IMG/VR virus record: IMGVR_UViG_2703718854_000004
Length of the DNA stretch: 19,005 nucleotides
From: a virus
Taxonomy: Duplodnaviria > Heunggongvirae > Uroviricota > Caudoviricetes
Direction: 5' to 3' (one strand)
Shown here in pieces: positions 1 through 14,723 of this stretch. Every line of letters begins with the position of its first letter. Position 1 is the first letter of the stretch. Below the pieces are notes generated by a model. That model saw nothing but the letters and a program-made list of their open reading frames with translations, searched no databases and was not told where the DNA came from. The translations under genes and the position numbers were made by a program.

Positions 1-1074
1 TCATTTGTCGATTTCAATTTTGTCCCATTCCCGTCCACGGCTGTCCCTATACCGCGCCGCCATTGAATCTGATTTATGCCCGAGAAGACGTTGAGCAAAC
101 TTATCGCCAATCTGGTTCCGGTATAGCCTCGCTGACAGGCTACGCAGTTCATGGAATGTTGGCGGGTTTCCATCAAATGAGAGTCCAGATGCATTTCTCG
201 CCTTTGTAAAATACTTTGATACTGTTTTCGGGGAAAGCTGATCGTGATGCTTTGATGCGATTATAGTTTCACTGCTGCTGGCCTCCCTGCATTTCTGTAG
301 TGTATCAGCCAATGAGATATTGAGCGCGTCAATCGTTAGCGTTAGTGGAATGGCGAGTTTAGCCCCTGTTTTACTCTGTTCAATGTGAAGATGGTTGTCG
401 TTTATGTCTGACCATTTCATTCTGCACAAATCGCCGACTCTCTGCCCTGTAACGACGGCCAAATCCATCGCCAGCCTTAGCCAGATAGGGAGAGGTTCGG
501 CTGCATGGTAAATCTCGACATACTCATTAGCTGTCAGCCTTGAGCGCCTTACTTCTGACTTTGCTGTACGGGTTGCTGTTACCGGATTCGTTGCCACATG
601 CCCCTCGGCTATTGCTTCACGAAAAACGTCAACAAGGGTTGACCTGATTAATTTTGCGGAAGCTGCTTTACCTTCTGCTACGTAGGTGTTTAGCATTGCT
701 GCCACTTCTTTCGTTGATATGTCAGTGAGCGGTTTGTCCGGCAATTTTCTTCGGATTGCCCTGATTTTGCTGGCGTAGTCGAGTAGAGTTTTCGGCCTGA
801 TCCCCCTTTCGGTGAGGATTCTTTCATATCGGTCAAGCCACACATGAAGAGTGATTGCGTCACCGCCTTTAATTCTGTCTATCAGTGATTTGCGTCCGCT
901 GTCTGAGAGTAACTCAATATTGGCCTGTATTGCTTCAGTGATTGCTATCCTCCTGTCTCGGCCTAATCCAAACTCTTTACCCGTCCTTGGGTCCCTGTAG
1001 CAGTAATATCCATTGTTTCTTATATAAAGGTTAGGGGGTAAATCCCGGCGCTCATGACTTCGCCTTCTTCCCAT
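1..1074 (-). CDS. int: Tyrosine site-specific integrase, lambda Int type (357 aa); window begins at its stop codon
   Basis: ORF translation (MGRRRSHERRDLPPNLYIRNNGYYCYRDPRTGKEFGLG...) matches remembered lambda Int along its length; C-terminal catalytic region with HELRSL and RY motifs; start overlaps xis 3' end as in lambda. Confidence 0.95.
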   Translation of the reverse strand: MGRRRSHERRDLPPNLYIRNNGYYCYRDPRTGKEFGLGRDRRIAITEAIQANIELLSDSGRKSLIDRIKGGDAITLHVWLDRYERILTERGIRPKTLLDYASKIRAIRRKLPDKPLTDISTKEVAAMLNTYVAEGKAASAKLIRSTLVDVFREAIAEGHVATNPVTATRTAKSEVRRSRLTANEYVEIYHAAEPLPIWLRLAMDLAVVTGQRVGDLCRMKWSDINDNHLHIEQSKTGAKLAIPLTLTIDALNISLADTLQKCREASSSETIIASKHHDQLSPKTVSKYFTKARNASGLSFDGNPPTFHELRSLSARLYRNQIGDKFAQRLLGHKSDSMAARYRDSRGREWDKIEIDK

Positions 1075-1270
1075 TTCTGATCCTCTTCAAAAGGCTACCT
1101 GTTACTGGTCGATTTAAGTCAACCTTTACCGCTGATTCGTGGAACAGATACTCTCTTCCATCCTTAACCGGAGGAGGGAATATCCTGCACTCGCGTACCC
1201 ATCGACGAACTGTTTCAAGGCTTCTTGGGCGTCGCTGGCGTGCGTTCCACTCCTGAAGTGTCAAGTACAT
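1052..1270 (-). CDS. xis: Excisionase Xis (72 aa)
   Basis: Translation MYLTLQEWNARQRRPRSLETVRRWVRECRIFPPPVKDGREYLF... matches remembered lambda Xis; 23-nt overlap with int start. Confidence 0.93.
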   Translation of the reverse strand: MYLTLQEWNARQRRPRSLETVRRWVRECRIFPPPVKDGREYLFHESAVKVDLNRPVTGSLLKRIRNGKKAKS

Positions 1271-1565
1271 CGCAAAGTCTCCGCAATTACACGCAAGAAA
1301 AAACCGCCATCAGGCGGCTTGGTGTTCTTTCAGTTCTTCAATTCGAATATTGGTTACGTCTGCATGTGCTATCTGCGCCCACAGCATCCAGTGGTCATAG
1401 CAGTCGCTGATGTTCTCGGCTTCGATAACTCTGTTGAATGGTTCTCCATTCCATTCACCTGTAACTCGGAAGTGCATTTATCATCTCCATAAAACAAAAC
1501 TCGCCGTAGCGAGTTCAGATAAAAGAAATCCCCGCGAGTGCGAGGATAGTTACTTGTTCATATTA

Positions 1566-1847
1566 TTAATCGTCAATGTATTTTGAGCATTGTGGGCAAT
1601 CATCGATCCCACAATACGATTCATATGCATCCTTTATTGCGTCGCGGGCTTCAGTAAGAGTATTGAATAAGTTGCAGCTATTATCTTTTTGATATAGGTA
1701 AGTTCCTAATTTATAAGCAGAAGAAGCATCATTTCCGCTGTCTAAAATTACATCGTTATGGATTCTGCACCTTGCAAGAACTCCTGATCCCATAAGGGTC
1801 TGCATAGCCCATTGCTCTTGATCTTCACACAAATCATGAATGCTCAT
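1566..1847 (-). CDS. ea8.5: Ea8.5-like small Cys-rich protein (93 aa from internal ATG; six-frame ORF extends to 1865)
   Basis: Same position (about 295 bp beyond xis) and same length (282 bp) as lambda ea8.5; several Cys pairs; start choice MSIHDL is by size analogy, not verified. Confidence 0.55.
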   Translation of the reverse strand: MSIHDLCEDQEQWAMQTLMGSGVLARCRIHNDVILDSGNDASSAYKLGTYLYQKDNSCNLFNTLTEARDAIKDAYESYCGIDDCPQCSKYIDD

Positions 1848-1961
1848 TTCAACACCTCTCTTCACGTTTCACACACGTTAAGATTAACAGTGTTTTTACA
1901 TGCTTTGGAAGATTTATTTTATAAAAACTCTTTTAATACAAATAGATATAATAGTTCACTA

Positions 1962-2630
1962 TTATAGCTCCTTTAATCGAGGCGGTTCTGGTAGAGGCAT
2001 CCAGTGGGTTACCTCTTTGAGATACAGGTCTTCGCCATCACCGTCATCCCAAGTTGGATTGCCATCATTAAACCAGTCGCCATATACGCCGACCTGAGTG
2101 TTGGGGATGTTTGGTGGGTAGTTGTTTTTAAAGTCAGCTGCTAACACATAGCATTGTCGCTCTCCCATTTCTGGCATTCGCTCACTACAGCTTATCCAAC
2201 CATCCGGAGTTACCGGATAGTTGCCGGGTTCTTTAATGTGCAAGCGAGGCTCACCATCTTTTGGCTCAGGCCACTGGCGCTCCATGTTGATCTTCAATTT
2301 ATCTTCCATAGCAGCGGTAATTTCAGCATCGCTGATGCCAGCACGGCGCTGTGCATCCCACAACAGAAACTGCATATCAGCCCACTCGCTAAGATCGTCT
2401 GGTTCGGCTGCGGCTTCCAGTGCCTCTTTTGAGAGATGTTTCAGCGGACCAATGGGGCCAACGCAGCCAAATGTGGAGTCAGACCATTTGGCATGCTCGT
2501 GGCGAATCTGTTCGCGTTCCAGTGATGCCAGTGCAATTCGTGCCAGTTCCATTTGTTCGCCACGAGTAAGTCCGTTATCAAGCGGATTTTTAATGAATAA
2601 TTTGATACGTTCTTTGGTTATAGCGCTCAT
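1962..2630 (-). CDS. Two-domain protein: N-terminal MazG-like nucleotide pyrophosphohydrolase-like region (DUF550-like) plus C-terminal DUF551-like region (222 aa)
   Basis: Strong RBS AAGGAG 7 nt upstream of ATG at 2630 (ORF track start at 2663 is probably upstream of the real start); motif EWADMQFLLWDAQRRAGISDAEITAAMEDKLKINMERQW resembles MazG-type helices; C-terminus THWMPLPEPP resembles DUF551; occupies the variable ea22 region. Confidence 0.65.
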   Translation of the reverse strand: MSAITKERIKLFIKNPLDNGLTRGEQMELARIALASLEREQIRHEHAKWSDSTFGCVGPIGPLKHLSKEALEAAAEPDDLSEWADMQFLLWDAQRRAGISDAEITAAMEDKLKINMERQWPEPKDGEPRLHIKEPGNYPVTPDGWISCSERMPEMGERQCYVLAADFKNNYPPNIPNTQVGVYGDWFNDGNPTWDDGDGEDLYLKEVTHWMPLPEPPRLKEL

Positions 2631-2631
2631 A

Positions 2632-3048
2632 TCACTCTCCTTTGATGCGAATGCCTGTTGCAATGCTGTTTATGATGCTGTCAGTGCATGGGGTAGAAAG
2701 CTGGGCATCTCCAGCAATTCTCATGACCTCAACATCTGCATATCGAATACCGAGGTGTATCAGACCGGCTATACCTGACTTAAGCCGAGCATTTTCCATA
2801 AACAGATCCTTTGCCCGCTGTTTTTCTGCCTCAAGCTCAACGCGCAACTTCCCTACCGTTAACGCAATATCCTCGTTCTCTTGGTCGCGGCGTTTGATGT
2901 ATTGCTGGTTTCTTTCCCGTTCATCCAGCAGTGCCAGCACAACCTGAGGTGTGACTTTCATACGAAATGCCAGCAATTTTTGAGGCGTTGCTACTGTTTC
3001 AATTGCTACTGCCGCCTCACGCAGTGCCTGAGAGTTAATTTCGCTCAC
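2632..3048 (-). CDS. Ea22-like coiled-coil protein (138 aa), apparent GTG start overlapping upstream stop (GTGA)
   Basis: N-terminus MSEINSQALREAA and the segment LLDERERNQQYIKRRDQENEDIALTVGKLRVELE resemble remembered lambda Ea22; stop abuts next gene start. Confidence 0.55.
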   Translation of the reverse strand: MSEINSQALREAAVAIETVATPQKLLAFRMKVTPQVVLALLDERERNQQYIKRRDQENEDIALTVGKLRVELEAEKQRAKDLFMENARLKSGIAGLIHLGIRYADVEVMRIAGDAQLSTPCTDSIINSIATGIRIKGE

Positions 3049-3266
3049 TTCGAACCTCTCTGTTTACTGATAAGCTCCAGATCCTCCTGGCAACTTGCAC
3101 AAGTCCGACAACCCTGAACGACCAGGCGTCTTCGTTCATCTATGGGATCGCCACACTCACAACAATGAGTGGCAGATATAGCCTGGTGGTTCAGGCGGCG
3201 CATTTTTATTGCTGTGTTGCGCTGTAATTCTTCAATTTCTGATGCTGAATCAATGATGTCTGCCAT
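3045..3266 (-). CDS. orf73: TraR/DksA-family C4 zinc-finger protein (73 aa), lambda Orf73-like
   Basis: Four-Cys motif CCECGDPIDERRRLVVQGCRTCASC typical of the TraR/DksA zinc finger; size and position as in lambda. Confidence 0.7.
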   Translation of the reverse strand: MADIIDSASEIEELQRNTAIKMRRLNHQAISATHCCECGDPIDERRRLVVQGCRTCASCQEDLELISKQRGSK

Positions 3267-3364
3267 CTTCCATTAATCCCTGAATTATTGGTTAATACGC
3301 TTGAGGGTGAATGCGAACAATAAAAAAGGAGCCTGTAGCTCCCTGATGATTTTGCTTTTCATGT

Positions 3365-3676
3365 TCATCGCTCCTTAAAGACGCCGTTTAACATGCCGAT
3401 CGCCAGACTTAAATGAGTCGGTGTGAATCCCATCAGCGTTACCGTTTCGCGGTGCTTCTTCAGTACGCTACGGCAAATGTCATCGACGTTTTTATCCGGA
3501 AACTGCTGTCTGGCTTTTTTGATTTCAGAGTTAGCCAGACGGGCAATGCTGCGAAGGGCGTTTTCTTGCTGAGGTGTCATTGAACAAGTCCCATGTCGGC
3601 AAGCATAAGCACACAAAATATGAAGCCCGCTGCCAGAAAAATGCATTCCGTGGTTGTCATACCTGGTCTCTCTCAT
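3365..3676 (-). CDS. Hypothetical protein at the lambda orf61 position (103 aa as drawn; alternative start at 3580 gives 71 aa)
   Basis: ORF overlaps the next gene start by 20 nt as lambda orf61 does with orf63; no recognisable domain; start uncertain. Confidence 0.45.
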   Translation of the reverse strand: MRETRYDNHGMHFSGSGLHILCAYACRHGTCSMTPQQENALRSIARLANSEIKKARQQFPDKNVDDICRSVLKKHRETVTLMGFTPTHLSLAIGMLNGVFKER

Positions 3677-3848
3677 CTGCTTCTGCTTTCGCCACCATCA
3701 TTTCCAGCTTTTGTGAAAGGGATGCGGCTAACGTATGAAATTCTTCGTCTGTTTCTACTGGTATTGGCACAAACCTGACTCCAATTTGAGCGAGGCTATG
3801 TGCCATCTCGATACTCGTTCTTAACTCAACAGGAGATGCTTTGTGCAT
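3657..3848 (-). CDS. orf63: Lambda orf63-like small protein (63 aa)
   Basis: Exact length and 28-nt overlap with the next gene as in lambda orf63/orf60a. Confidence 0.6.
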   Translation of the reverse strand: MHKASPVELRTSIEMAHSLAQIGVRFVPIPVETDEEFHTLAASLSQKLEMMVAKAEADERDQV

Positions 3849-6760: not shown

Positions 6761-6940
6761 TTAACCAAGTTCTCTGGCAATCATTGCCGTCGTTCGTATT
6801 GCCCATTTATCGACATATTTCCCATCTTCCATTACAGGAAACATTTCTTCAGGCTTAACCATACATTCCGATTGCAGCTTGCATCCATTGCATCGCTTGA
6901 ATTGTCCACACCATTGATTTTTATCAATAGTCGTAGTCAT
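6761..6940 (-). CDS. ral: Ral restriction-alleviation protein, 59 aa as read (apparently 7 codons shorter than lambda Ral)
   Basis: Hand translation MTTTIDKNQWCGQFKRCNGCKLQSECMVKPEEMFPVMEDGKYVDKWAIRTTAMIARELG then TAA; frame continues QNNKAA to a TGA. Confidence 0.75.
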   Translation of the reverse strand: MTTTIDKNQWCGQFKRCNGCKLQSECMVKPEEMFPVMEDGKYVDKWAIRTTAMIARELG

Positions 6941-7010: not shown

Positions 7011-7137
7011 ATATCACCTTAAATAGTGGATTGCGGTAGTAAAGATTGTGCCTGTCTTTTAACCACATCAGGCTCGGTGGTTCTCGTGTACCCCTACAGC
7101 GAGAAATCGGATAAACTATTACAACCCCTACAGTTTG

Positions 7138-7689
7138 ATGAGTATAGAAATGGATCTACTCGTTATTCTCGGACGAGTGTTCAGTAATGAACCTTTGGAG
7201 AGAACCATGTATATGATCGTTATCTGGGTTGGACTTCTGCTTTTAAGCCCAGATAACTGGCCTGAATATGTTAATGAGAGAATCGGTATTCCTCATGTGT
7301 GGCATGTTTTCGTCTTTGCTCTTGCATTTTCGCTAGCAATTAATGTGCATCGATTATCAGCTATTGCCAGCGCCAGATATAAGCGATTTAAGCTAAGAAA
7401 ACGCATGAAGATGCAAAACGATAAAGTGCGATCAGTAATTCAAAACCTTACAGAAGAGCAATCTATGGTTTTGTGCGCAGCCCTTAATGAAGGCAGGAAG
7501 TATGTGGTTACATCAAAACAATTCCCATACATTAGTGAGTTGATTGAGCTTGGTGTGTTGAACAAAACTTTTTCCCGATGGAACGGGAAGCATATATTAT
7601 TCCCTATTGAGGATATTTACTGGACTGAATTAGTTGCCAGCTATGATCCATATAATATTGAGATAAAGCCAAGGCCAATATCTAAGTAA
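7138..7689 (+). CDS. sieB: Superinfection exclusion protein SieB (about 183 aa), membrane protein
   Basis: Position between ral and N, opposite strand; hydrophobic N-terminal segments (IVIWVGLLLLSP, VFVFALAFSLAINV); first ATG at 7138. Confidence 0.8.
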   Translation: MSIEMDLLVILGRVFSNEPLERTMYMIVIWVGLLLLSPDNWPEYVNERIGIPHVWHVFVFALAFSLAINVHRLSAIASARYKRFKLRKRMKMQNDKVRSVIQNLTEEQSMVLCAALNEGRKYVVTSKQFPYISELIELGVLNKTFSRWNGKHILFPIEDIYWTELVASYDPYNIEIKPRPISK

Positions 7690-7932
7690 CTAGGTAAGAG
7701 GAATCGATTTTCCCTTAATTTTCTGGCGTCCACTGCATGTTATGCCGCGTTCGCCAGGCTTGCTGTACCATGTGCGCTGATTCTTGCGCTCAATACGTTG
7801 CAGGTTGCTTTCAATCTGTTTGTGGTATTCAGCCAGCACTGTAAGGTCTATCGGATTTAGTGCGCTTTCTACTCGTGATTTCGGTTTGCGATTCAGCGAG
7901 AGAATAGGGCGGTTAACTGGTTTTGCGCTTAC
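7690..7932 (-). pseudogene. N: N antiterminator remnant: C-terminal ~80 codons only, no start codon, arginine-rich RNA-binding N-terminus missing
   Basis: Minus-strand translation VSAKPVNRPILSLNRKPKSRVESALNPIDLTVLAEYHKQIESNLQRIERKNQRTWYSKPGERGITCSGRQKIKGKSIPL matches lambda N residues ~28-106; in-frame TAG four codons upstream of the homology boundary. Confidence 0.8.
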
Positions 7933-7972
7933 AGTACGGAACTAAACGCGGTAAAGCCGCTTAAGACATTCC

Positions 7973-8004
7973 CGCTCTTACACATCCCCGCCCTGAAAAA
8001 GGGC
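7973..8004 (+). promoter_or_regulatory. nutR site: boxA (CGCTCTTA) and boxB hairpin (GCCCTGAAAAAGGGC)
   Basis: Exact boxA and boxB consensus visible in sequence, followed by the lambda tR1/cII leader. Confidence 0.8.
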
Positions 8005-8083
8005 ATCCAATTAAACCACACCTATGGTGTATGCATTTATTTGCATACATTCAATCAATTGTTATCTAAGGAAATACTTACAT

Positions 8084-8377
8084 ATGGTTCGTGCAAACAA
8101 ACGCAACGAGGCTCTACGAATCGAGAGTGCGTTGCTTAACAAAATCGCAATGCTTGGAACTGAGAAGACAGCGGAAGCTGTGGGAGTTGATAAGTCGCAG
8201 ATCAGCAGGTGGAAGAGGGACTGGATTCCAAAGTTCTCAATGCTGCTTGCTGTTCTTGAATGGGGTGTCGTTGACGACGACATGGCTCGATTGGCACGAC
8301 AAGTTGCTGCGATTCTCACCAATAAAAAACGCCCGGCGGCAACCGAGCGTTCTGAACAAATCCAGATGGAGTTCTGA
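8084..8377 (+). CDS. cII: Transcriptional activator cII (97 aa)
   Basis: Translation from ATG 8084 MVRANKRNEALRIESALLNKIAMLGTEKTAEAVGVDKSQISRWKRDW... matches remembered lambda cII; the ORF-track start at 8024 is an upstream non-ATG extension. Confidence 0.95.
   Translation: MVRANKRNEALRIESALLNKIAMLGTEKTAEAVGVDKSQISRWKRDWIPKFSMLLAVLEWGVVDDDMARLARQVAAILTNKKRPAATERSEQIQMEF
8092..8105 (-). promoter_or_regulatory. cII binding repeats TTGC-N6-TTGC of pRE (-35 region), inside the cII 5' coding sequence
   Basis: Minus strand reads TTGCGTTTGTTTGC; known pRE architecture in lambda. Its targets (cro antisense, cI) are absent here. Confidence 0.5.
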
Positions 8378-8409
8378 GGTCATTACTGGATCAATCTACA
8401 GGAGTCATT

Positions 8410-9309
8410 ATGACAAATACAGCAAAAATACTCAACTTCTGCAGAGGTAACTTTGCCAAACAGGAGCGTAATGTGGCAGATCTCGATGATGGTTACGCCA
8501 GACTATCAAATATGCTGCTTGAGGCTTATTCAGGCGCAGATCTGACCAAGCGACAGTTTAAAGTGCTGCTTGCCATTCTGCGTAAAACCTATGGGTGGAA
8601 TAAACCAATGGACAGAATCACCGATTCTCAACTTAGCGAGATTACAAAGTTACCCGTCAAACGGTGCAATGAAGCCAAGTTAGAACTCGTCAGAATGAAT
8701 ATTATCAAGCAGCAATGCGGCATGTTTGGACCAAATAAAAACATCTCAGAATGGTGCATCCCTCAAAACGAGGGAAAATCCCTTAAAACGAGGGATAAAA
8801 CATCCCTCAAATTGGGGGATTGCTATCCCTCAAAACAGGGGGACACAAAAGACACTATTACAAAAGAAAAAAGAAAAGATTATTCGTCAGAGAATTCTGG
8901 CGAATCCTCTGACCAGCCAGAAAACGACCTTTCTGTGGTGAAACCGGATGCTGCAATTCAGAGCGGCAGCAAGTGGGGGACAGCAGAAGACCTGACCGCC
9001 GCAGAGTGGATGTTTGACATGGTGAAGACTATCGCACCATCAGCCAGAAAACCGAATTTTGCTGGGTGGGCTAACGATATCCGCCTGATGCGTGAACGTG
9101 ACGGACGTAACCACCGCGACATGTGCGTGCTGTTCCGCTGGGCATGTCAGGACAACTTCTGGTCCGGTAACGTGCTGAGCCCGGCCAAACTCCGCGATAA
9201 GTGGACCCAACTCGAAATCAACCGTAACAAGCAACAGGCAGGCGTGATAGCCAGCAAACCAAAACTCGACCTGACAAACACAGACTGGATTTACGGGGTG
9301 GATCTATGA
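8410..9309 (+). CDS. O: Replication initiator O (299 aa)
   Basis: Translation matches remembered lambda O; contains the ori iterons. Confidence 0.95.
   Translation: MTNTAKILNFCRGNFAKQERNVADLDDGYARLSNMLLEAYSGADLTKRQFKVLLAILRKTYGWNKPMDRITDSQLSEITKLPVKRCNEAKLELVRMNIIKQQCGMFGPNKNISEWCIPQNEGKSLKTRDKTSLKLGDCYPSKQGDTKDTITKEKRKDYSSENSGESSDQPENDLSVVKPDAAIQSGSKWGTAEDLTAAEWMFDMVKTIAPSARKPNFAGWANDIRLMRERDGRNHRDMCVLFRWACQDNFWSGNVLSPAKLRDKWTQLEINRNKQQAGVIASKPKLDLTNTDWIYGVDL
8757..8890 (+). repeat. ori-lambda: four ~19-bp iterons (ATCCCTCAAAACGAGGGA-type) plus adjacent AT-rich unwinding region
   Basis: Four tandem inverted-symmetry repeats visible at about 8757-8843, followed by A-rich tract AAAAGAAAAAAGAAAAGATTATT. 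Confidence 0.85.
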
Positions 9310-10007
9310 AAAACATCGCCGCACAGATGGTTAACTTTGACCGTGAGCAGATGCGTCGGATCGCCAACAACATGCCGGAACAGTACGACGAAAAGCCGCA
9401 GGTACAACAGGTAGCGCAGATCATCAATGGTGTGTTCAGCCAGTTACTGGCAACTTTCCCGGCGAGCCTGGCTAACCGGGACCAGAACGAACTGAACGAA
9501 ATCCGCCGCCAGTGGGTGCTGGCTTTCCGGGAAAACGGGATCACCACAATGGAACAGGTTAACGCAGGAATGCGCGTAGCCCGTCGGCAGAATCGACCAT
9601 TTCTGCCATCACCCGGGCAGTTTGTTGCATGGTGCCGGGAAGAAGCATCCGTTATCGCCGGACTGCCAAACGTCAGCGAGCTGGTTGATATGGTTTACGA
9701 GTATTGCCGGAAGCGAGGCCTGTATCCGGATGCGGAGTCTTATCCGTGGAAATCAAACGCGCACTACTGGCTGGTTACCAACCTGTATCAGAACATGCGG
9801 GCCAATGCGCTTACTGATGCGGAATTACGCCGTAAGGCCGCAGATGAGCTTGTCCATATGACTGCGAGAATTAACCGTGGTGAGGCGATCCCTGAACCAG
9901 TAAAACAACTTCCTGTCATGGGCGGTAGACCTCTAAATCGTGCACAGGCTCTGGCGAAGATCGCAGAAATCAAAGCTAAGTTCGGACTGAAAGGAGCAAG
10001 TGTATGA
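9306..10007 (+). CDS. P: Replication protein P, DnaB helicase loader (233 aa)
   Basis: Translation matches remembered lambda P; ATGA overlap with O stop. Confidence 0.95.
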   Translation: MKNIAAQMVNFDREQMRRIANNMPEQYDEKPQVQQVAQIINGVFSQLLATFPASLANRDQNELNEIRRQWVLAFRENGITTMEQVNAGMRVARRQNRPFLPSPGQFVAWCREEASVIAGLPNVSELVDMVYEYCRKRGLYPDAESYPWKSNAHYWLVTNLYQNMRANALTDAELRRKAADELVHMTARINRGEAIPEPVKQLPVMGGRPLNRAQALAKIAEIKAKFGLKGASV

Positions 10008-13212: not shown

Positions 13213-14295
13213 TTAGAACTGGTAAACCATACCTACAGCAACGATATCATCGGTAGCAACGCCAGATGCTTTCGTGAAATCGCTCTTATCAATCAGGTTG
13301 ATTTTGTAGTCAACAAAAGTGGACATATTTTTGTTGAAGTAATAGGTTGCACCTACATCAACATATTCAACCAGGTCCTGATCACCCCAAACACCCAAGT
13401 CTTTTCCTTTAGAATGCAGGTAAGCAACGGATGGACGCAGGCCGAAGTCGAACTGATATTGTGCAACAGCTTCGAAGTTTTGTGCTTTGTTGGCAATATG
13501 GTTATTACCAAAAACAGTCATGTTCTGGGTTTCAGAATAGGTGGTGGCCAGATAGATGTTGTTCGCATCATATTTCAGACCAGCTGCCCATACTTCAGCA
13601 TTTTGACCAGAAGCATTCAGACCGTTGTTACCGTAGATAACCTGATTATTAGTGCGATCAGATTTAGCATAGGTTGCACCCACGCCGAATCCTTCATACT
13701 CATAAGTAGTTGAGAAACCGAAACCATCGCCATTAGCTTCAGTTACTTCATTTCGGTCATTTTTGCCCTGATACTGAGCTGCAAAGTTCAGGCCATCAAC
13801 CAGACCAAAGAAGTCGTTGTTACGATAAGTTGCAACACCTGTGGTGCGACCAGTCATGAATACATCTGTTTGGGTCCAGGTATCGCCACCGAATTCTGGC
13901 AGAACGTCGGTCCATGCACCGATGTCGTATGCTACACCGTAGTTACGGCCGTAATCGATGGAGCCGTAGTCACCGAATTTCAGGCCAGCGAAGGCAAGAC
14001 GGGTTTTATCTTTGGAGGAACCTTGAGATTCAGCGCGGTTGCCTTTGAATTCATATTCCCACTGACCGAAACCAGTCAGTTGATCGTTGATTTGGGTTTC
14101 ACCTTTGAAGCCAAGACGGGCATAAGTAGTATCACCATCATCTGCATCATTAGAGGAGAAGTAGTGCTTAGCATTAACTTTCCCGTACAGATCCAGCTTG
14201 TTACTGTCTTTATTATAAATTTCAGCTGCCTGAGCAGACATCGCCATCAGTACTGATGCAGCTACAGCAGAAATTGCCACTGTTAATTTTTTCAT
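13213..14295 (-). CDS. nmpC: Outer-membrane general porin, OmpC/OmpF superfamily, phage-borne NmpC/Lc type (360 aa precursor)
   Basis: Start MKKLTV... with signal peptide ending AQA; C-terminal VGMVYQF beta-barrel signature; ORF-track start at 14355 is an upstream extension; sits antisense between Q and holin as in DLP12/PA-2. Confidence 0.85.
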
Positions 14296-14723
14296 CGTGA
14301 GCCCTTTTTTTGAACTATTATTAAAAAATGATGTCACTGCGCGATAAATATTCATCTAATCAATGTGATTATTTCAAGATGTAAGTTTTGGTTTCTCGTT
14401 TGATTTGTGAAGTAGATCTCTATTTTTATCTGAACTTTTTTCTATCGAATCCTATTCATGGCTCTTGGCTGAATAAAAATAAATCTATTAGCCAATTTAT
14501 ATTAACGGCTGTTATTTATAAGTGCTCTATAATTTGAAGGTTCAATTTAAACCGGCTAAAAATAACACTGGAAATTATTTGTTGGTTATTTGTTGAGATT
14601 TGCTTATGTATTTGTAGTGGTGTTTTCAATACTCGGTAGCATTCTCGCAAATATCATTTAGTGGTTTACGTACGTAAAAAATTGGTTATGCTGTTAAGAG
14701 TGGTTACTTCGTCACACAGCTTA

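Follow-up and report, generated by a model that had tools for sequence, protein, structure and literature searches.

The question this locus raises is why phages with normal DNA carry an enzyme predicted to hydrolyze dGTP and dATP. The gene concerned lies in a 19,005-nucleotide stretch of viral DNA (hereafter, the window) and, judged by its sequence, is an allele of eaA, a gene first named in Salmonella phage P22. We conclude that it is probably an intact eaA allele with an early accessory function, encoding a MazZ-type purine (d)NTP pyrophosphohydrolase joined to a DUF551 domain. The family, the architecture, and identical proteins are all known already, and this is an ordinary, common, and long-catalogued phage gene, with 4174 representatives of 50%-identity clusters in the family. 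Its practical value is modest, and nothing in our analysis indicates a surprising answer to the central question.

The minus-strand reading frame is uninterrupted up to a TAA at 1964-1962. A program-made ORF list begins the gene at TTG 2663, within the upstream Ea22-like ORF, whereas the original prediction placed the true start at 2630, behind an AAGGAG ribosome-binding site. The later start is borne out by that site, by ORF25 of phage N7, whose start codon lies at the position equivalent to 2630, by 222-residue proteins of 100% identity that NCBI already holds under the name "DUF550 domain-containing protein," and by the N terminus of P22 EaA. ATG 2630 falls one base past the TGA of the upstream ORF (2634-2632), which makes translational coupling of the two genes probable. 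The peptides quoted in the original prediction, LSEWADMQ...MERQWP and THWMPLPEPP, correspond to residues 80-121 and 208-217, respectively.

Table 1. Features of the eaA locus; positions refer to the window.
Feature	Position	Strand	Basis
Ribosome-binding site AAGGAG	2637..2642	-	6-nt spacer to ATG 2630-2628; read from sequence
eaA-type coding sequence, 222 aa + TAA stop	1962..2630	-	ORF and translation; identical 222-aa NCBI proteins
N-terminal leader, residues 1-37 (MSAITKERIKLFIKNPLDNGLTRGEQMELARIALASL)	2520..2630	-	P22 EaA N-terminus match; PHROG matches
PF04447 domain (MazZ-type), residues 42-137	2220..2507	-	Pfam; PDB 7ODY profile match; hhalign
Catalytic core (predicted), residues 69-92	2355..2426	-	Alignment with S-2L MazZ and SH-Ab 15497 DUF550; roles from PMC8342488
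Second pocket half (predicted), residues 111-120	2271..2300	-	Alignment with S-2L MazZ; roles from PMC8342488
Conserved junction, residues 136-158 (PGNYPVTPDGWISCSERMPEMGE)	2157..2225	-	Megablast match ranges
PF04448 domain (DUF551), residues 144-217	1980..2201	-	Pfam 73.3 bits (cut-off 22), E=2.9e-20
Upstream neighbor, Ead/Ea22-family ORF, 138 aa	2632..3048	-	Pfam PF13935, E=2.2e-21
Downstream neighbor, lambda Ea8.5-family ORF	1566..1865	-	Pfam PF20735, E=1.1e-15

RefSeq's PGAP pipeline reads identical DNA in another way, calling a CDS of 190 residues in one record and 163 in another, with the 5' end covered in both by a partial "hypothetical protein" pseudogene, a tag that takes in part of the leader stretch. 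Read thus, the gene would be a remnant: its first ≈40 codons would be a piece left over from a different gene, with a real product of 163-190 residues. We consider this very improbable. The two RefSeq calls conflict with one another, and the 163-residue version intrudes on the PF04447 domain; the frame is open from 2630 behind a strong ribosome-binding site, and the gene is called at full length in phage N7 and in NCBI nr. Moreover, the leader is the N terminus of P22 EaA, with 31 of 37 residues identical, and it is under purifying selection (17 differences at the nucleotide level against just 6 in the protein; dN/dS 0.21). On these grounds, we rule out the shorter PGAP models; the correct model is 222 residues from 2630, and this is where the locus has annotation value, given that PGAP splits or truncates identical DNA in two ways. 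The leader occurs on P22 EaA and on further phage proteins, and the N terminus matches phrog_3323, phrog_10451, and phrog_660; every matching group in the PHROG search is of unknown function.

P22 EaA (BK000583, DAA01002.1, 317 residues) shares with this protein not only the leader but also the module order of leader, PF04447, and PF04448, and it has the same genomic surroundings, an early-left accessory stretch close to xis and int. Its DUF550 domain is 80% identical to the one studied here. It differs in its DUF551 variant and in two inserts, one of 41 residues following the leader and one of 70 residues separating the two domains. Phage N7 ORF25 likewise has DUF550 followed by DUF551. The fusion is not unusual as cargo but is the standard P22 EaA architecture.

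Both Pfam families named in the original prediction, PF04447 and PF04448, match the protein far beyond chance. PF04447, formerly DUF550 and now called "dATP/dGTP pyrophosphohydrolase," scores 142.4 bits (cut-off 23; E=5.5e-42) and covers profile positions 1-96 of 97. The two characterized enzymes in the family also exceed this cut-off, MazZ of cyanophage S-2L with 44.4 bits and the enzyme of Acinetobacter phage SH-Ab 15497 with 33.4 bits. A profile built from seven DUF550 domains, S-2L left out, matches PDB 7ODY, the S-2L MazZ structure, with E=3.3e-13 and an hhalign probability of 98.4%, and the S-2L MazZ crystal structure has a MazG-HisE fold (PMC8342488). The DUF550 domain studied here is 27% identical to S-2L MazZ and 26% identical to the SH-Ab 15497 domain. 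The enzyme name that Pfam and PGAP give to enterobacterial EaA is transferred from relatives at this distance (26-27% identity), which counts against the enzyme reading.

The eaA protein has no match at E≤1 to the Pfam models for canonical MazG (PF03819), MazG-like (PF12643), or HisE PRA-PH (PF01503), and NCBIfam likewise returned no match. S-2L MazZ itself gives sub-threshold matches to all three Pfam models, and the DUF550 profile also weakly matches phage dimeric dUTPase. The proposed MazG/HisE-type assignment therefore holds at the superfamily level, through S-2L MazZ, but not at the level of the canonical family models, and the eaA protein is a member of the MazZ/DUF550 family rather than the MazG family. 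Structure prediction with AlphaFold2 was run twice on alignments that were shallow because homologue searches gave mostly near-identical E. coli and Salmonella proteins. The mean pLDDT, too low to confirm the fold independently, was 45.1 with 14 close EaA homologues and 46.4 with 34 rows that included trimmed DUF550 and DUF551 domains. The first of these low-confidence models shows several helices followed by a strand at residues 128-133, an order compatible with the MazG-HisE fold of four helices and two C-terminal strands, which assembles as a tetramer; a Foldseek search of the PDB with the second returned only noise (best E=4.2).

Alignment with the characterized enzymes places the residues of the active site. 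The predicted metal ligands E69 and E72 (ExxE) and E82 and D85 (ExxD) align with S-2L E35, E38, E50, and D53 and are present in all 132 cluster representatives; the acidic residues whose loss would have spoken against a MazG-like enzyme are thus in place and invariant. D92, kept in 131 of 132, is the equivalent of S-2L D60, which contacts the guanine 2-amino group (PMC8342488). K111, N115, R118, and W120 are equivalent to S-2L K76, N80, R83, and W85 and are kept in at least 131 of the 132. Over eight sequences from Escherichia, Salmonella, Klebsiella, Mycobacterium, Pseudomonas, Rhodococcus, Acinetobacter, and a cyanophage, 13 columns are invariant, including four of the five metal ligands as well as the S-2L positions K76, N80, R83, W85, and D60. 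The exception is S-2L E34, the third ligand of metal ion A, which is a lysine here (K68) and in 130 of 132 representatives. E34 is the sole metal ligand not conserved among MazZ-1 homologues (PMC8342488) and so does not strictly define the family. The S-2L base-contact residue N20 is a phenylalanine here (F54) and a tyrosine in SH-Ab 15497. Together, K68 and F54 suggest that substrate choice may differ from that of S-2L MazZ. The domain is under purifying selection, as are the leader and the DUF551 domain, with 87 nucleotide but only 21 amino-acid differences from P22 over 103 codons.

With four of five metal ligands and the pocket residues present and invariant or nearly so, an active purine (d)NTP pyrophosphohydrolase is the best reading of the eaA protein. 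This is a reasonable prediction and more than a transferred name, because enterobacterial EaA proteins keep the MazZ active site. The two characterized relatives release pyrophosphate from purine nucleotides: S-2L MazZ, which is (d)GTP-specific, yields (d)GMP (PMC8342488), and the SH-Ab 15497 DUF550 protein turns dATP into dAMP and dGTP into dGMP, with pyrophosphate as the other product (PMC12884076). From this homology, we infer the activity, substrate, and physiological role of EaA. Its DUF550 domain would form a MazG/HisE-type helical oligomer in which E69, E72, E82, and D85 coordinate the divalent metal ions for catalysis, K111, N115, R118, and W120 of the partner chain close the pocket, and D92 reads the purine 2-amino group. 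Pyrophosphate would be released from a purine (deoxy)nucleoside triphosphate, most probably dGTP or GTP and possibly dATP. For phages whose DNA is normal, such an enzyme would be an early accessory, not essential, that adjusts or cleans the pool of purine nucleotides in the host. Our literature search found no experimental work, enzymatic or genetic, on any enterobacterial EaA.

S-2L MazZ works together with PurZ and DatZ to make 2-aminoadenine DNA, which raises the possibility that EaA, as a member of the same Pfam family as S-2L MazZ and the SH-Ab 15497 DUF550 protein, supplies dGMP to PurZ in a 2-aminoadenine (Z) genome pathway. We searched the 19-kb window by tblastn with SH-Ab 15497 PurZ and DatZ and found nothing significant (best E ≈1), so a role in feeding 2-aminoadenine DNA synthesis is unlikely on this count. 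The element, a lambda-type prophage in the chromosome, carries O/P replication genes, and the DUF550 proteins of Z phages form one separate monophyletic group (PMC12884076). With purZ and datZ not found in the window, we rejected this role, giving it next to no chance of being correct. The architectures differ as well: S-2L MazZ, which shares the four metal ligands and the listed pocket residues, is a single 105-residue domain with neither leader nor DUF551, whereas the SH-Ab 15497 enzyme, whose PF04447 domain has the same invariant catalytic columns, carries an N-terminal PF18909 (DUF5664) fusion and no C-terminal DUF551, and is encoded beside purZ and datZ. In favor of the purine (d)NTP pyrophosphohydrolase reading, two distant phages not reported as having 2-aminoadenine DNA, phi297 and Dusk, have a DUF550 gene adjoining a DUF4406 gene; in Dusk, it also adjoins a PF18909 (dGTP_diPhyd_N/DUF5664) gene, from a family linked to dNTP hydrolysis.

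Other all-alpha NTP pyrophosphatases perform house-cleaning of non-canonical dNTPs, and EaA could similarly remove damaged or non-canonical purine dNTPs (8-oxo-dGTP, dITP, dXTP) before they are incorporated into phage DNA. The superfamily-level kinship to MazG/HisE and dimeric dUTPase-type enzymes, seen in the sub-threshold and weak profile matches, is consistent with this idea. A published study links the exo-xis region to prophage induction by oxidative stress (PMC4699033), and E. coli YfdS, a DUF551 protein, has been linked to H2O2 tolerance (PMC4776307). These links to oxidative stress, however, concern other genes, or DUF551 instead of DUF550, and the characterized family members use canonical dGTP and dATP (PMC8342488, PMC12884076). 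We therefore hold house-cleaning to be rather improbable.

The genomic setting bears on when such a protein would be made. An E. coli lambdoid prophage carries the gene in its early-left (exo-xis) region, between Pfam-assigned Ead/Ea22-family and lambda Ea8.5-family ORFs, which bears out its predicted location in the ea22 variable region. The upstream ORF is shorter than other family members and is an incomplete pseudogene in RefSeq, where the downstream neighbor is named "Ea8.5 family phage-derived protein." Other genes of this early accessory region are ral, sieB, gam, and kil. A deletion has removed pL/cI/cro from this prophage copy, so eaA may not be expressed in this host. Virulent Klebsiella Webervirus phages and mycobacteriophages have PF04447 members too, which suggests that the family serves growth of the phage itself rather than prophage-encoded defense of the host. 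We considered prophage-encoded defense by dNTP depletion and set it aside, as the gene belongs to the pL early operon and the family extends to virulent phages.

The company of ral, sieB, gam, and kil could also be taken to mean that the DUF550-DUF551 proteins of phages without Z genomes act in early counter-defense, destroying a guanine or purine alarmone or immune messenger such as (p)ppGpp or dITP. Early destruction of the substrate would block abortive infection, and the hypervariable DUF551 would serve in targeting, evasion, or interaction, diversifying under pressure from the host. The MazG-like phage pyrophosphatase Atd1 hydrolyzes ppGpp and relieves the toxicity of TIR-STING and retron-TIR (bioRxiv 10.1101/2022.06.09.495361), and dITP is the immune messenger of Kongming (bioRxiv 10.1101/2024.12.20.629578); in addition, the guanine-reading residue D92 is conserved, and two related proteins carry a Lar restriction-alleviation domain. 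Nevertheless, Atd1 is described as a MazG catalytic domain. Canonical MazG, MazG-like, and HisE proteins, Atd1 included, share with EaA the all-alpha NTP pyrophosphohydrolase superfamily and, through S-2L MazZ, the ExxE...ExxD metal logic, but nothing indicates ppGpp as a substrate of the eaA protein, as it is of Atd1 (bioRxiv 10.1101/2022.06.09.495361). The two characterized PF04447 members act on dGTP, GTP, or dATP (PMC8342488, PMC12884076), and the phage factor known to counter Kongming is a dNMP phosphatase rather than a pyrophosphohydrolase (bioRxiv 10.1101/2024.12.20.629578). PADLOC defense models gave no match for the eaA protein or three neighboring ORFs, although anti-defense genes lie outside PADLOC coverage. 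Counter-defense is thus an unlikely explanation, and an anti-defense or alarmone role for EaA is speculation.

The DUF551 domain has a hypervariable core between conserved flanks (W...RMP and HWMPLP), with W145, P153, H209, W210, and P214 invariant across 22 diverse DUF551 domains. Neither the single sequence nor a profile of 22 sequences matched a solved structure at better than E≈0.5. The variant in BP-4795 ORF5 is almost this one (identity at 79 of 83 aligned positions; dN/dS 0.25). Like the eaA protein, BP-4795 ORF5, YfdS of E. coli CPS-53, and the Stx-phage Ea22 variant V2 carry DUF551 at the C terminus, but they have other N-terminal modules (an Ea22 coiled coil or unknown segments) and no DUF550.

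This distribution bears on a further alternative, in which EaA, like its neighbor Ea22 and other exo-xis genes, regulates the choice between lysis and lysogeny through protein contacts, mediated mainly by DUF551, and not by catalysis. The exo-xis genes are switched on very early and shift the decision on lysogeny (PMC8614690, PMC3824215), DUF551 is the C-terminal domain of one Stx-phage Ea22 variant (PMC10834534), and the yfdQRS cluster, with a DUF551 protein among its products, blocks the start of replication in the host when over-supplied (PMC4776307). Near-perfect conservation of the catalytic residues in 132 diverged representatives is, however, hard to explain without catalysis, and DUF551 is absent from 79 of the 138 cluster representatives with DUF550. 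We regard this alternative as quite improbable. For an EaA that acts as a pyrophosphohydrolase, DUF551 is probably a portable cap that binds partners and is swapped through recombination at conserved joints, a role that is our guess.

The mosaic structure is evident from the megablast matches, in which P22-like phages match residues 1-158 and Stx phages residues 136-217; their overlap marks residues 136-158 as the likely recombination joint between the modules. In all 59 cluster representatives that have both domains, DUF550 precedes DUF551. Among 5426 E. coli genomes, 2635 match some part of the gene, 512 match the DUF550 core, and 390 match this DUF551 variant. A DUF550 module that closely matches this one is present in ≈9% of the complete genomes of E. 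coli, and Shiga-toxin phages have related copies.

A Pfam profile search of the eaA-type gene product matched PF04447 at residues 42–137 (142.4 bits, E = 5.5e-42) and PF04448 (DUF551) at residues 144–217 (73.3 bits, E = 2.9e-20), both well over the curated cut-off. PF04447, formerly DUF550, is now named dATP/dGTP pyrophosphohydrolase in Pfam. The original prediction of a MazG-like domain fused to DUF551 is thus borne out as DUF550 plus DUF551, its observation is confirmed and its overall interpretation supported, and both peptides that it cited are found in the translation. The family and architecture are standard and annotated before; all 14 PHROG matches are of unknown function, and searches with the protein returned no NCBIfam model and no PADLOC match.

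Positions of the eaA-type gene, other prophage features, and comparison loci (each locus outside the window in its own numbering)
Feature	Coordinates	Strand	Remarks
eaA-type CDS	1962-2630	(-)	Uninterrupted open frame, 222 codons plus TAA stop
Ea22-family ORF	2632-3048	(-)	Upstream neighbor; 138 aa, GTG start
Antirestriction Ral-family gene	6761-6940	(-)	Same early-left region as eaA
Superinfection-exclusion B (sieB) gene	7135-7689	(+)	Same early-left region as eaA
OmpC-type porin gene	13213-14355	(-)	Between Q-type antiterminator (quuD-like) and lysis genes
Stretch missing from window copy	AL.H8 prophage locus 7933-9676		Comparison with E. coli AL.H8
P22 eaA	P22 locus 2764-3717		Relative with two inserts
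DUF550 + DUF4406 cluster	phi297 locus 865-1679		
DUF550 + DUF4406 + PF18909 cluster	Dusk locus 485-1759		

Several lines of evidence agree that translation starts at 2630, as had been proposed. Read from the sequence, this ATG lies one base past the TGA of the upstream gene and has an AAGGAG ribosome-binding site 6 bases upstream; the TTG at 2663, used in a mechanical ORF list, falls within that gene. ORF25 of phage N7 starts at the equivalent position, NCBI includes identical 222-aa proteins named "DUF550 domain-containing protein," and the leader (residues 1–37) corresponds to the N terminus of P22 EaA, with 17 nucleotide but only 6 amino acid differences (dN/dS 0.21). The 222-aa gene model is therefore the well-supported one. 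On identical DNA, RefSeq PGAP starts the CDS at window position 2531 (190 aa) in one genome and at 2453 (163 aa) in another (NZ_CP053787 and NZ_CP082349), and both genomes have a "partial hypothetical protein" pseudogene covering the 5′ end of the gene. We rejected these short models, which contradict each other, the 163-aa one also truncating the Pfam domain.

Two PF04447 members have been characterized. MazZ of cyanophage S-2L acts on (d)GTP, yielding (d)GMP, and its crystal structure, PDB 7ODY, has a MazG-HisE fold (PMC8342488). In Acinetobacter phage SH-Ab 15497, the DUF5664-DUF550 protein hydrolyzes dGTP and dATP to monophosphates and pyrophosphate (PMC12884076). Against PF04447, the two score 44.4 and 33.4 bits, respectively. 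A DUF550 profile of seven domains, with S-2L left out, found 7ODY at E = 3.3e-13, and hhalign of the DUF550 profile against this structure gave 98.4% probability, linking the predicted MazG/HisE-type core to the MazZ fold. In the alignment, the S-2L metal ligands Glu35, Glu38, Glu50, and Asp53 are retained as Glu69, Glu72, Glu82, and Asp85, the guanine 2-amino contact Asp60 as Asp92, and the partner-chain pocket residues Lys76, Asn80, Arg83, and Trp85 as Lys111, Asn115, Arg118, and Trp120. The mapped metal and pocket columns are invariant in eight highly diverse sequences and kept in at least 131 of 132 cluster representatives. A further ligand, Glu34, is replaced by Lys; according to the S-2L authors, it is the sole metal ligand varying among homologues. 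The S-2L residue that contacts guanine O6, Asn20, is replaced by Phe in EaA; the SH-Ab enzyme, which has dual specificity, carries Tyr at this position. This difference hints at broader purine specificity. Together with the strong purifying selection on the DUF550 domain seen in comparison with P22, the conserved catalytic residues indicate that the protein is most likely an active purine (d)NTP pyrophosphohydrolase, with dGTP/GTP its most likely substrate and dATP a possible one.

The only established role of the family is in phages with 2-aminoadenine (Z) genomes, where it supplies dGMP to PurZ and clears dATP. A MazZ-like role of this kind is unlikely for EaA because no purZ or datZ homologues were found within the 19-kb window, eaA belongs to a lambda-type prophage residing in the chromosome, and the Z-phage DUF550 proteins form a monophyletic group of their own (PMC12884076). 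In two distant phages with no report of 2-aminoadenine DNA use, Pseudomonas phage phi297 and Mycobacterium phage Dusk, the DUF550 gene immediately adjoins a DUF4406 gene, and in Dusk also a PF18909 (dGTP_diPhyd_N/DUF5664) gene. This looks like a small nucleotide-metabolism cluster recurring beyond Z-genome phages and supports a general nucleotide-pool function, with DUF4406 putatively assigned to the deoxyribosyltransferase-like group. By analogy with Atd1, a MazG-like phage enzyme that lowers ppGpp (bioRxiv 10.1101/2022.06.09.495361), EaA might possibly degrade a nucleotide signal in counter-defense; house-cleaning and regulatory roles are likewise possible.

The DUF551 domain has conserved flanks (Trp145, Pro153, His209, Trp210, and Pro214 are invariant in an alignment of diverse domains) around a core variable in sequence and length. 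A sequence search of solved structures with DUF551 found no relative, and Foldseek on a low-confidence AlphaFold model of the protein gave only noise. Literature links to function are loose: one Ea22 variant of Stx phages has DUF551 as its C-terminal domain (PMC10834534), and the domain also occurs in CPS-53 YfdS. This protein is linked to H2O2 tolerance, and over-supply of it along with YfdQ and YfdR is linked to inhibited initiation of replication (PMC4776307). Our low-confidence guess for DUF551 is a portable partner-binding cap.

P22 EaA (317 aa) shares both domains, their order, and the leader, and its DUF550 domain is 80% identical, but it carries an insert of 41 residues and another of 70, both absent here; ours is a compact eaA allele. 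The family comprises 4174 representatives of 50%-identity clusters at E ≤ 1e-3. Among the best 150, DUF550 occurs in 138, DUF551 in 71, and both in 59, always with DUF550 first (59/59). A Pfam scan of the same 150 gave 138 PF04447, 49 PF04448, 4 Ead_Ea22, and 2 Lar, the last being the restriction-alleviation domain PF14354. By tblastn, the DUF550 domain appears in 516 phage records, including virulent Klebsiella Webervirus phages, mycobacteriophages, and Pseudomonas phages.

At the nucleotide level, residues 1–158 are matched by N7, VSe13, and other P22-like phages, and residues 136–217 by Stx-converting phages and BP-4795 ORF5; the two sets overlap in the conserved joint PGNYPVTPDGWISCSERMPE. 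Across 5426 complete E. coli genomes, the modules are seen to travel separately: the DUF550 core is matched in 512, this DUF551 variant in 390, and the whole gene (at least 80% covered) in 49. Any part of the gene is matched in 2635, a surplus best explained by the leader and the joint being shared. This is classic lambdoid-phage module exchange, and eaA is a string of exchangeable modules. In several 277-aa E. coli alleles, a 55-residue insert separates DUF550 from DUF551; other alleles have a different leader swapped in.

The eaA gene belongs to a lambdoid prophage of E. coli whose left arm and early region make up the window. The genes run in the order int, xis, a small ORF, an Ea8.5-family gene, eaA, an Ea22-family gene, a DksA/TraR zinc-finger gene, DUF1382, DUF1317, exo, bet, gam, kil, cIII, ral, sieB, N, O, P, ren, nin genes, Q, and lysis genes. 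This order places eaA within the exo-xis region, for which two reports (PMC8614690, PMC3824215) describe very early expression and an ability to affect the lysis-lysogeny decision. Because the stop of the Ea22-family ORF nearly abuts the eaA start codon, the two genes are suggested to be translationally coupled. This ORF, labeled an incomplete pseudogene by RefSeq, begins with the N-terminal and coiled-coil portion of Ead_Ea22; what follows is a short, unrelated tail whose last residues are GIRIKGE. Relative to the otherwise near-identical E. coli AL.H8 prophage, ≈1745 bp is absent at a junction (window 7922–7932) with short microhomology. The deletion removes pL and nutL along with the 5′ end of N, as well as one hypothetical gene, most of cro, and the gene for the LexA-family cI repressor, and the window copy therefore lacks the immunity region; with pL gone, the early-left operon holding eaA is probably without its normal promoter. 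The porin gene, annotated ompC by RefSeq in matching genomes, lies in the slot that carries cargo such as nmpC in E. coli prophage DLP12 or stx in Stx phages.
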